8,044 nt of DNA from a virus (Duplodnaviria > Heunggongvirae > Uroviricota > Caudoviricetes), in IMG/VR virus record IMGVR_UViG_2639762982_000010; one strand, given 5' to 3'. The notes under the pieces were generated by a model. It did no database searches. It saw nothing but the letters and a program-made list of their open reading frames with translations, and had not been told where the DNA came from. Positions 4,961-5,057 of the stretch are shown here, in pieces (the first letter of the stretch is position 1; each line of letters starts with the position of its first letter). The position numbers and the translations under genes were made by a program.

Positions 4961-4995
4961 AAACCCGCTCATCAGCGGGTTTTCTACTTTTTCTT
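4961..4995. terminator. Bidirectional intrinsic terminator: cspF terminator on plus; candidate tR'-like terminator of a short late-promoter transcript on minus
   Basis: 9-bp stem aaacccgct/agcgggttt (4961-4969 / 4974-4982), loop catc. Plus strand then has TCTACTTTTTCTT; minus strand has TTTTGTGCTTT. Confidence 0.65.
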
Positions 4996-5028
4996 AACGT
5001 CGGGTATACAAAGCCCATCATTGAAAAA

Positions 5029-5057
5029 ATTTTATCCATATTTTTTGAAAAATGCAA
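5029..5057 (-). promoter_or_regulatory. Candidate sigma-70 late promoter (PR'-like) just downstream of Q
   Basis: Minus strand: -35 TTGCAT (5057-5052), 17-nt spacer, -10 TAAAAT (5034-5029). Lies 32 nt past the Q stop and about 45-70 nt upstream of the 4961-4982 hairpin, the expected arrangement for a lambdoid PR'-qut-tR' unit. Confidence 0.4.

Follow-up and report, generated by a model that had tools for sequence, protein, structure and literature searches.

Location of a probable late regulatory cassette in the Qin prophage

Here, we examined the region that follows the late antiterminator gene quuQ (ydfT) in an 8,044-nt stretch of DNA deposited in IMG/VR as a virus of the class Caudoviricetes (IMGVR_UViG_2639762982_000010); the whole of this stretch is referred to as the window. 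The window represents the cryptic prophage Qin of a K-12-like Escherichia coli: a 701-nt query covering positions 4700–5400 gave matches of 99.9–100% in K-12 derivatives as well as in numerous further E. coli chromosomes, and the genes follow one another in the order characteristic of Qin, namely, flxA, ydfV, relBE, hokD, rem, ydfU, ydfT (quuQ), cspF, cspB, ynfU, essQ, ydfR, rrrQ, rzpQ, and cspI. In RefSeq, Qin is annotated as a cryptic prophage. Coordinates in the MG1655 genome are obtained by adding 1,637,400 to those of the window and, over positions 4900–5100, the two sequences differ at a single site, 5020 (T in the window, C in MG1655). Positions within the cassette described here are read on the minus strand.

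Downstream of quuQ, the minus strand carries, in succession, a promoter-like sequence, an element resembling the pause signal of lambdoid late promoters, and an intrinsic terminator hairpin, followed by a long leader with small genes in both orientations and, finally, the holin gene essQ (Table 1). It is highly probable, in our view, that the segment 5057–4956 is the Q-dependent late regulatory cassette of Qin, a homologue of the lambda array that consists of the late promoter PR′, the Q-binding element (QBE), the pause site, and the terminator tR′. An initial annotation of the window had proposed a lambdoid late-promoter geometry at this site, and this proposal is borne out by the homology to lambda PR′, the pause element, the conserved hairpin, and a mapped RNA 3′ end. 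The start site, the pause, the binding of QuuQ to the spacer, and the Q-dependent readthrough are all predicted from homology with lambda.

Table 1. Features of the quuQ-essQ region, in window coordinates
Feature	Position	Strand	Basis
quuQ (ydfT), late antiterminator of the Q-lambda family, 250 aa	5089..5841	-	Pfam, PDB match, RefSeq annotation
PR′ -35 hexamer, TTGCAT	5052..5057	-	aligns with lambda TTGACT and phi80 TTGCAT
17-nt spacer TTTTCAAAAAATATGGA, candidate QBE	5035..5051	-	conservation, likeness to lambda, Q-site annotation in phi80
PR′ -10 hexamer, TAAAAT	5029..5034	-	TAAGAT or TAGGAT in relatives
Predicted +1 and putative sigma70-dependent pause element	5014..5022	-	-10-like AATGAT (+1 to +6), then discriminator-like triplet GGG
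Initial transcribed segment, +10 to +18, CTTTGTAT(A/G)	5005..5013	-	lambda-type pause expected at +16/+17
Predicted 67-nt PR′-tR′ RNA	4956..5022	-	Term-seq 3′ end; 5′ end predicted
tR′ intrinsic terminator hairpin	4960..4983	-	fold, compensatory changes, SfV and Ayreon annotation, plus-strand flag in scan
Second minus-strand 3′ end, AT-rich hairpin antisense to ynfS	4788..4830	-	Term-seq orphan, one list
ynfS, small protein gene, antisense cargo	4722..4811	+	RefSeq; missing in Tritos-type phages
cspF, antisense cargo	4455..4667	+	Pfam CSD, annotation
cspB with its own thermoregulator in the 5′ untranslated region (UTR), sense, moron-like cargo	3939..4315	-	Rfam RF01766, Pfam CSD
G+C-rich hairpin between cspB and ynfU	3632..3657		canonical minus-strand terminator by sequence (scan)
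ynfU, antisense cargo	3405..3575	+	Pfam YnfU, annotation
essQ, holin, first late (lysis) gene	2970..3185	-	Pfam Phage_holin_2_1, annotation

QuuQ is an antiterminator of the Q-lambda family

The gene immediately upstream of the cassette encodes an intact, bona fide antiterminator of the Q-lambda family. QuuQ matches the Pfam profile PF03589 (Antiterm; 4.2e-54), together with DnaJ_CXXCXGXG, and a search of the PDB retrieves lambda Q from structure 7UBM (7ubm_Q; E=5e-36, in two stretches). The two proteins are 41% identical, and both the torus-forming segment at the N terminus and the four zinc ligands are conserved in QuuQ. According to the published definitions, PF03589 represents the Q-lambda family, from which Q21 (PF06530) and Q82 (PF06323) are separate (Yin et al. 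2022, PMC9388147; Dudenhoeffer et al. 2020). A Q82-type assignment of QuuQ, with a pause at +25, is ruled out by the Pfam and PDB searches and by these family definitions. Nor does QuuQ fit the Q82 or Q21 type, whose cassettes have their pause at +25 or +18 and their QBE past the start site: the only Pfam matches of QuuQ are PF03589 and the DnaJ zinc finger.

The quuQ gene is full length; its product shares 100% identity with the Q encoded by the deposited phage genome PhiR42_1, and 93–94% with the Q proteins of 2H10, mEp460, and SfV-type phages. The zinc-ribbon arm of QuuQ contains a 47-aa insertion (residues ~115–161) that adds two CxxCxGxG motifs, for four in total; such long-form Q proteins are common in the family, being encoded, for instance, by phi80, Gifsy-2, and mEp237. 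Given that the arm of lambda Q touches QBE positions 11–13 and sigma region 4, its enlargement in QuuQ may change the geometry of Q loading.

A promoter homologous to lambda PR′ and its pause element

The -35 hexamer starts 32 nt past the last base of the quuQ stop codon (TAA, 5091–5089), with 31 nt in between, and a 17-nt spacer separates it from the -10 hexamer, exactly as given in the initial annotation. The description of this promoter as near-consensus was, however, too strong. The -35 hexamer matches TTGACA in 3 of 6 positions and the -10 hexamer matches TATAAT in 5 of 6, for a total of 8 of 12. A generic promoter scan reports this promoter under an adjacent register, TTTGCA-18-TAAAAT (9/12), and detects 16 promoter-like sites in the window, compared with 15.1 ± 4.4 expected from shuffled sequences, so that the hexamers alone are not above chance. 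It is only with its wider context, that is, the composite motif and the RNA fold, that the element rises above chance.

When the Qin sequence is aligned with lambda PR′ from the -35 hexamer to +9, without gaps, 31 of the 44 positions are identical, a number reached by none of 100,000 shuffled sequences. No other register in the lambda locus yields more than 22 identities, and past +9, identity to lambda falls to 8/30. The 17-nt spacing is the same in Qin and lambda, and so is the distance from the -10 hexamer to the start site, which places the predicted +1 at the A in position 5022, 7 nt past the -10 hexamer. As judged by this comparison, the Qin promoter is a homologue of lambda PR′, and transcription would start at 5022.

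For comparison with relatives, we assembled 80 viral contigs that encode close QuuQ homologues (94–100% protein identity) and contain 36 distinct cassette variants; conservation of individual segments was assessed on ten aligned representatives, with percentages calculated from nine of these, HannyBb being excluded. The comparison with the lambda QBE was made at the level of the spacer, which is identical in the two phages in 11 of 17 positions. Among the aligned relatives, 14 of the 17 spacer columns are invariant and the flanking sequence is variable. Furthermore, the phi80 record (JX871397) annotates the site bound by its Q protein, gp17, at spacer positions 2–8. These observations point to the spacer as the candidate QBE, to which QuuQ would bind.

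Downstream of the -10 hexamer, positions +1 to +9 of the window read AATGATGGG (5022–5014). In lambda, the sigma70-dependent pause element (SDPE) is AACGAT at +1 to +6, followed by GGG (PMC4005639); the window differs from it at one base, +3 (position 5020), whereas MG1655 and 35 of the 36 distinct variants among the relatives carry AACGATGGG at +1 to +9, which is identical to lambda. The T at 5020, converting AACGAT into AATGAT, is found in only 1/36 distinct variants and 2/80 viral loci. A2 and T6, the critical bases of the -10-like hexamer, are unaffected by this change, which brings the hexamer nearer to TATAAT. The composite motif TTG-N3-N17-TA-N3-T-N6-AAYGATGGG, which joins promoter and pause element, occurs once in the window and in none of 200 shuffled sequences. 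We regard the pause element, which had not been noticed in the initial annotation, as the strongest single argument for the identification of a late cassette. By analogy with lambda, RNA polymerase would pause near +16/+17 and, among the aligned relatives, 6 of the 8 columns from +10 to +17 are invariant.

Conservation and boundaries of the cassette

The composite motif is located directly after the Q gene in 78 of the 80 related contigs. The -35 hexamer TTGCAT is present in 34 of the 36 distinct variants and invariant in 9 of the 10 aligned relatives. Conservation amounts to 100% in the -35 hexamer, 98% in the spacer, 99% in the pause element, and 97% in the segment from +10 to +17, and drops to 76% from +18 to +39 and to 57% after the hairpin. 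The distance to the hairpin is constant, and its stem shows compensatory changes, with the pairs CCCGC/GCGGG, CTCGC/GCGAG, CCTCGC/GCGAGG, and ACCGC/GCGGT in different variants. These changes were read directly from the sequences because MAFFT mis-registered the divergent hairpins; RNAalifold, applied to 20 variants, recovers only the terminator core, with weak covariation (-0.86).

The same layout extends to distant members of the Q-lambda family. In lambda, P22, Gifsy-2, SF10, Stx2_EH1910, and YeP3, the sequence AA(C/G)GATGG(G/A) is found 6–7 nt past the -10 hexamer, after Q, and phi80 has the variant AACGCTGGG at the pause position. In most of these phages, a G+C-rich hairpin with a T-run lies 30–60 nt past the pause element. 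Such elements have in part been annotated previously: the phi80 record includes pR′, the Q site, and a terminator 53–81 nt past the -10 hexamer, and the SfV and Ayreon records each include a terminator homologous to that of Qin.

The homology of Qin to N21, DEC5D, SfV, Ayreon, and the Stx2c phages ceases precisely where the hairpin has its last base, 4960; its homology to HannyBb, F1055, and PhiR63_1 ceases at 5006, which corresponds to +17, the expected pause position. Because homology breaks at these two points, Q, promoter, pause, and terminator appear to form one exchangeable module. The break at 4960 also bears on the possibility that the region codes for a protein, in the form of a 51-codon open reading frame (ORF) with a TTG start at 5057–4902 (minus strand). 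The PhiR42_1 record lists this ORF as encoding a hypothetical protein. Yet it starts at the -35 hexamer, crosses the terminator hairpin, and is absent from the RefSeq annotation of K-12, and its homology to relatives ends in the middle of the frame, at 4960. We therefore rejected this ORF, which spans the distance from the -35 hexamer to the terminator, and consider a coding function to be extremely improbable.

In HannyBb (L011; 2001–2896 and 4449–5396) and PhiR63_1, the 3′ end of Q and PR′ are present in two copies ~1.5 kb apart. In HannyBb, the promoter of the first copy has diverged (TTGTAT…AATGATGAG), and the second copy, of the Qin type and 97% identical to the window from position 5146 on, precedes cspF. 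The 1.5-kb insert contains tiny ORFs only, and a tRNA search of it found none.

The tR′ terminator and a predicted 67-nt RNA

The terminator hairpin, AAAACCCGCU-GAUG-AGCGGGUUUU, occupies positions 46–69 past the -10 hexamer. The initial annotation had placed a terminator 45–70 nt downstream of the promoter, in agreement with this position, and had assigned to it a stem of 9 bp; the stem is instead 10 bp long, counting four A-U pairs, with a G+C-rich core of 6 bp (CCCGCU/AGCGGG). On its 3′ side, the hairpin is followed by UUUUGUGC (GUGCUUU), in which the U-tract is short and interrupted. A generic scan flags the hairpin as terminator-like on the plus strand only, the minus strand being passed over because of this short U-tract. 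The hairpin may also terminate convergent transcription of cspF and ynfS.

The published Term-seq lists for MG1655 (Adams et al. 2021, PMC7815308, supplementary file 1) contain a minus-strand 3′ end at 1,642,356, which corresponds to window position 4956, a C four bases past the tR′ stem (…GCGGGUUUUGUGC). Three lists include this end (scores 103,591, 55,368, and 123,305), which is classed as ‘orphan’ and printed with a flanking sequence identical to window positions 5006–4946. Taken together with the predicted start site, it delimits a putative RNA of 67 nt (1,642,422–1,642,356 on the minus strand of MG1655). This RNA folds at -24.4 kcal/mol (z = -4.8 relative to shuffled sequences) into a 5′ hairpin, an A-rich single strand (AAGAAAAAGUAGAAAA), and the terminator hairpin. 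RefSeq annotates no RNA gene at 4956–5022 in K-12, and an Rfam search (E<=1) over 4956–5057 returned nothing. A further orphan 3′ end, at window position 4788 (MG1655 1,642,188, minus strand), probably marks the end of transcripts that read through tR′.

The same hairpin could, in principle, do no more than terminate the delayed-early ydfU-quuQ operon at its 3′ end, perhaps acting in both directions to stop convergent cspF/ynfS transcription as well, with the hexamers being incidental and the mapped 3′ end being that of the quuQ mRNA. The chance-level number of promoter-like sites in the window and the plus-strand flag of the hairpin fit this explanation, and the ‘orphan’ class of the 4956 end is compatible with a long ydfT 3′UTR. 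In addition, the predicted start site has no entry in the ROSE, Cappable-seq, Kim 2012, and SMRT-Cappable-seq supplements, and a full-text literature search on the coordinates of the site retrieved only unrelated papers. However, a plain 3′UTR leaves unexplained the 31/44 identity to lambda PR′ in register and the lambda-identical pause element, the near invariance of the -35 hexamer, the spacer, and +1 to +17 next to 22 variable nt, as well as the presence of the same architecture after Q in distant phages of the Q-lambda family. Furthermore, the signal at 4956 is at least as strong as that of hokD, which would not be expected for the operon of a silenced prophage. We consider this explanation very unlikely.

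A different question is whether the 67-nt RNA, in addition to being the product of the cassette, is a small regulatory RNA (sRNA) of the host that acts in trans, similar to StxS. Short RNAs of the PR′ type have precedents in StxS, lambda 6S RNA, and IsrK (PMC7547250), the 3′ end is strong in all three Term-seq lists, the predicted fold is stable and leaves the A-rich AAGAAAAAGUAGAAAA single-stranded, and an entity named ‘cspF.ydfT.IGR’ is included in tables derived from Hfq RIL-seq. Conversely, conservation within the RNA is lowest (76%) in its single-stranded middle (+18 to +39), the U-tract is short for an RNA bound by Hfq, no Rfam family matches, and the RIL-seq-based predictor assigns to ‘cspF.ydfT.IGR’ a very low sRNA-likeness score of 0.0024. 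On balance, a trans-acting role is unlikely. Still more speculative, and improbable as a whole, is a scenario in which K-12 constitutively makes the ~67-nt Qin RNA, which has been co-opted as a chaperone-associated regulator, and in which, separately, CspB, which is both an RNA chaperone and an antiterminator, is delivered by the late leader within the Q-dependent late transcript.

Proposed mode of action of the cassette

Under the late-cassette interpretation, the sigma70 holoenzyme would start transcription at about 5022 from TTGCAT-17-TAAAAT. Sigma region 2 would then re-bind the -10-like AAYGAT with the adjoining GGG at +1 to +9, and RNA polymerase would pause near +16/+17. In the absence of Q, the polymerase would escape from the pause and terminate at the 4983–4960 hairpin, yielding an RNA of ~67 nt that ends at 4956. 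If present, QuuQ would bind the spacer between the -35 and -10 hexamers and load onto the paused complex, making the polymerase resistant to terminators. The modified polymerase would run for about 1.8 kb past tR′, ynfS, cspF, cspB with its hairpins, and ynfU into essQ-ydfR-rrrQ-rzpQ. The cassette may still operate in the cryptic prophage.

Several observations weigh against this interpretation. The -35 hexamer is weak, with half of its positions matching the consensus. The spacer differs from the lambda QBE at 6/17 positions and QuuQ has the 47-aa arm insertion, so that the geometry of Q-DNA recognition may differ from that in lambda. The -35-like TTGACT of lambda, which is located shortly before the pause element and serves to reposition sigma region 4 in the paused complex, is not conserved, Qin and its relatives having TTTTTC or TTTTCY instead. 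Qin is cryptic, and QuuQ may never be expressed. A leaky tR′ is suggested by the short U-tract of Qin (4 U) and the 3′ end at 4788; the Qin tract is one T shorter than those of 2H10 and Tritos and 2–3 T shorter than those of SfV-type cassettes. Finally, the 3′ end at 4956 could come from transcripts started further upstream, such as the quuQ mRNA. Such a source is unlikely because the signal is strong in uninduced cells and promoters of the PR′ type are constitutive in lysogens (PMC7547250).

The late leader and its cargo

PR′ is followed, on the same strand, by the late genes essQ, ydfR, rrrQ, and rzpQ. The distance of ~1.8 kb to the holin start, noted in the initial annotation, amounts to 1837 nt from the predicted +1, and the cargo is likewise arranged as described there, with cspF and ynfU antisense, cspB sense, and a hairpin at 3657–3632. 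A polymerase moving along the minus strand encounters, in this order, tR′, the 4788 hairpin, the antisense ynfS and cspF, cspB, a 3′ end at 3824–3826, further hairpins, and the antisense ynfU. The claim that at least two terminators separate the promoter from the holin holds in that there are several, but as a count it is an underestimate. Reading across more than one terminator is common for this type of cassette: 2–4 terminators are annotated between Q and the holin in the SfV, Ayreon, and phi80 records.

The cspB gene is preceded by a cspA-type thermoregulator (Rfam RF01766; 158.8 bits over 4315–3923). The match begins at the first position of the model, at 4315, which implies that cspB has a start site of its own. 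An orphan Term-seq 3′ end lies within this 5′UTR, at 4234, and a very strong minus-strand 3′ end, with scores up to 2.46 million, marks the end of cspB transcripts at 3824–3826, 113 nt past the cspB stop codon. Beyond cspB, the scan detects hairpins at 3760–3744 and 3657–3638. The Term-seq lists contain no minus-strand 3′ end at the latter; a plus-strand end of ynfU, at 3660 (MG1655 1,641,060), is located there. The 3′ end at 3824–3826 is just past a hairpin (region 3824–3870) that sequesters a perfect Shine-Dalgarno sequence (UAAGGAGGU), and it coincides with the ATG of an unannotated 11-codon ORF (MKQWPAYLAKS).

This arrangement bears on the possibility that the cassette is an intact relic, with QuuQ hardly made, only the short RNA produced, constitutively, and the lysis genes expressed, if at all, from a promoter upstream of essQ. 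Qin is annotated as cryptic, TTTATA-16-AATAAT lies upstream of essQ at 3338–3311 (minus strand), and, from 3824 to essQ, the Term-seq lists examined are devoid of minus-strand 3′ ends, so that, in uninduced cells, little transcription seems to arrive from upstream. In the opposite direction point the full-length quuQ, whose product is indistinguishable from the PhiR42_1 protein, and the intactness of promoter, pause, and terminator. A separate late promoter upstream of essQ, which the initial annotation had named as a competing possibility, may exist in Qin in the form of the hexamers at 3338–3311, although these are at chance level, and no such promoter is conserved in three phage contexts: in Ayreon, L057, and L061, homology of the essQ-type holin begins 12–26 nt before the ATG, directly behind an intrinsic terminator. 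Because homology starts this close to the gene, behind a terminator, the essQ-type holin cassette appears to lack a conserved promoter of its own and to rely on antiterminated transcription. We consider the relic scenario possible but doubtful.

The initial annotation viewed the csp genes as morons inserted into the late leader and suggested a comparison with related prophages that lack them. At least one Qin-type cargo gene is present in 35 of the 80 related loci, all of which encode a Q at least 98% identical to QuuQ; cspF and cspB are found together in 34 of these 35, and the remaining locus ends after ynfS. None of the five late-leader genes searched (ynfS, cspF, cspB, ynfU, and essQ) is detected in 43 loci, and 2 loci match the holin only, so that 45/80 lack both cspB and cspF. 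In conjunction with the homology break at 4960, these data support, at the level of sequence comparison, the view of cspF, cspB, ynfS, and ynfU as lineage-specific, moron-like cargo of the late leader.

In other lineages, the same slot is filled differently: SfV and Ayreon carry a DNA methylase together with small ORFs, and DEC5D carries tRNAs. In Stx2c-converting phages, it contains tRNAs and then, 2.6 kb downstream and in the same orientation, stx2cA (ORF matching Pfam RIP, 9.4e-30). The layout of Q, PR′, tR′, csp genes, and holin is found in the deposited complete genomes of 2H10 (genus Glaedevirus), Tritos, and PhiR42_1 and, as such, is not simply a product of cryptic-prophage decay. Tritos-type phages and about 10 viral contigs lack window positions 4658–4915, a block of 258 bp that includes ynfS and the last 10 nt of cspF, indicative of turnover by indels inside the late leader.

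A second thermoregulator of the cspA type (112.8 bits) covers cspI at 1027–1412 (minus strand). The late unit of Qin accordingly includes two sense cold-shock genes with full 5′UTR thermosensors, cspB before and cspI after the lysis genes. These two thermoregulators are the only Rfam matches in the window that pass the gathering threshold; there are two sub-threshold matches elsewhere. A weak match to isrK, the sRNA linked to antitermination in Salmonella Gifsy-1, is located at 7629–7710 (minus strand), just downstream of hokD (E=0.033; 25 bits compared with a gathering score of 50), and probably reflects the 3′ structure of the hok mRNA or chance.

Relationship to other late regulatory regions

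The Qin cassette shares with the PR′-QBE-SDPE-tR′ region of lambda a Q of the PF03589 family, the location directly after Q, the terminator, and the lysis genes downstream on the same strand. It differs in the length of the terminated RNA, ~67 nt compared with 194 nt for lambda 6S RNA, and in the leader to the holin, which is 1.8 kb long with sense and antisense cargo in Qin and about 0.6 kb in lambda.

The pR′ of phi80 has the same -35 hexamer, TTGCAT, a 17-nt spacer ending in CTGGA (ATGGA in Qin), a long-form Q of the Q-lambda family, a promoter-proximal terminator ~50–80 nt past the -10 hexamer, and a second terminator before the holin. By contrast, the upstream half of the spacer is TCGCGGA in phi80 and TTTCAAA in Qin, as expected for Q-specific recognition, the pause element AACGCTGGG is one base further from the -10 hexamer, and the phi80 Q is only ~36% identical to QuuQ.

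Much closer are SfV, mEp460, Ayreon, 2H10, Tritos, and the Stx2c phages, in which the DNA of Q and cassette is ~90–97% identical to that of Qin (window 5900–4960) and ends at the same base. The U-tracts of these phages consist of 5–7 U, compared with 4 U in Qin, and the cargo after the terminator differs, although 2H10 and Tritos also carry cspB before the holin, with cspF intact or not.

Similar to the predicted Qin RNA, StxS and Salmonella IsrK are short, originate from an antitermination-controlled late promoter, end at tR′, and are constitutive in the lysogen. StxS, however, is associated with an unrelated type of Q and is cut from a 258-nt precursor to 74 nt, and its Hfq binding and targets have been shown; neither StxS nor IsrK has sequence similarity to the Qin RNA. 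A promoter of the Qin type is not described in the paper on the diversity of Stx-phage pR′ (PMC6266700). With respect to cargo, the csp block occupies the same slot between Q and S as morons such as stx and is replaced by other cargo in other lineages. Unlike the usual morons, however, cspF, ynfU, and ynfS are antisense to late transcription, a less usual orientation.

Implications for annotation of prophage late regions

The Qin cassette is an element of a textbook kind, homologous copies of which are already annotated in phi80, SfV, and Ayreon, and the current understanding of Q antitermination is unchanged by these findings. The Qin instance and its short RNA are, nevertheless, unannotated in the K-12 RefSeq record, and the mildly new aspect is the unannotated RNA. 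Our analysis gives a mechanistic annotation to a 3′ end that Term-seq had left as an ‘orphan’ in the E. coli reference genome, and it adds four features to that record, namely, the promoter, the pause site, the terminator, and the short RNA. More generally, AAYGATGGG at +1 followed by a terminator 30–60 nt later appears to be the common layout in the Q-lambda family, with a short terminated transcript (~67 nt) as the norm and the 194-nt 6S RNA of lambda as an outlier, and this layout should be useful for annotating the late regions of prophages. The deposited complete phage genomes further indicate that sense and antisense cargo, as well as several terminators, are tolerated within the late leader.

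All 15 genomes of Stx2c-converting phages in our collection carry a Q of the QuuQ type, with the cassette 2.6 kb upstream of stx2cA. The DNA of Q gene and cassette is ~90% identical to that of Qin. Located as it is upstream of the toxin gene, the cassette bears on toxin expression through its strength, pause, and terminator efficiency. In the Stx2c phage PV98-693 (L010), for example, the cassette is at 3845–3940 and the stx2cA region at 6520–7440, with small ORFs, a DNA methylase, and two tRNAs in between.

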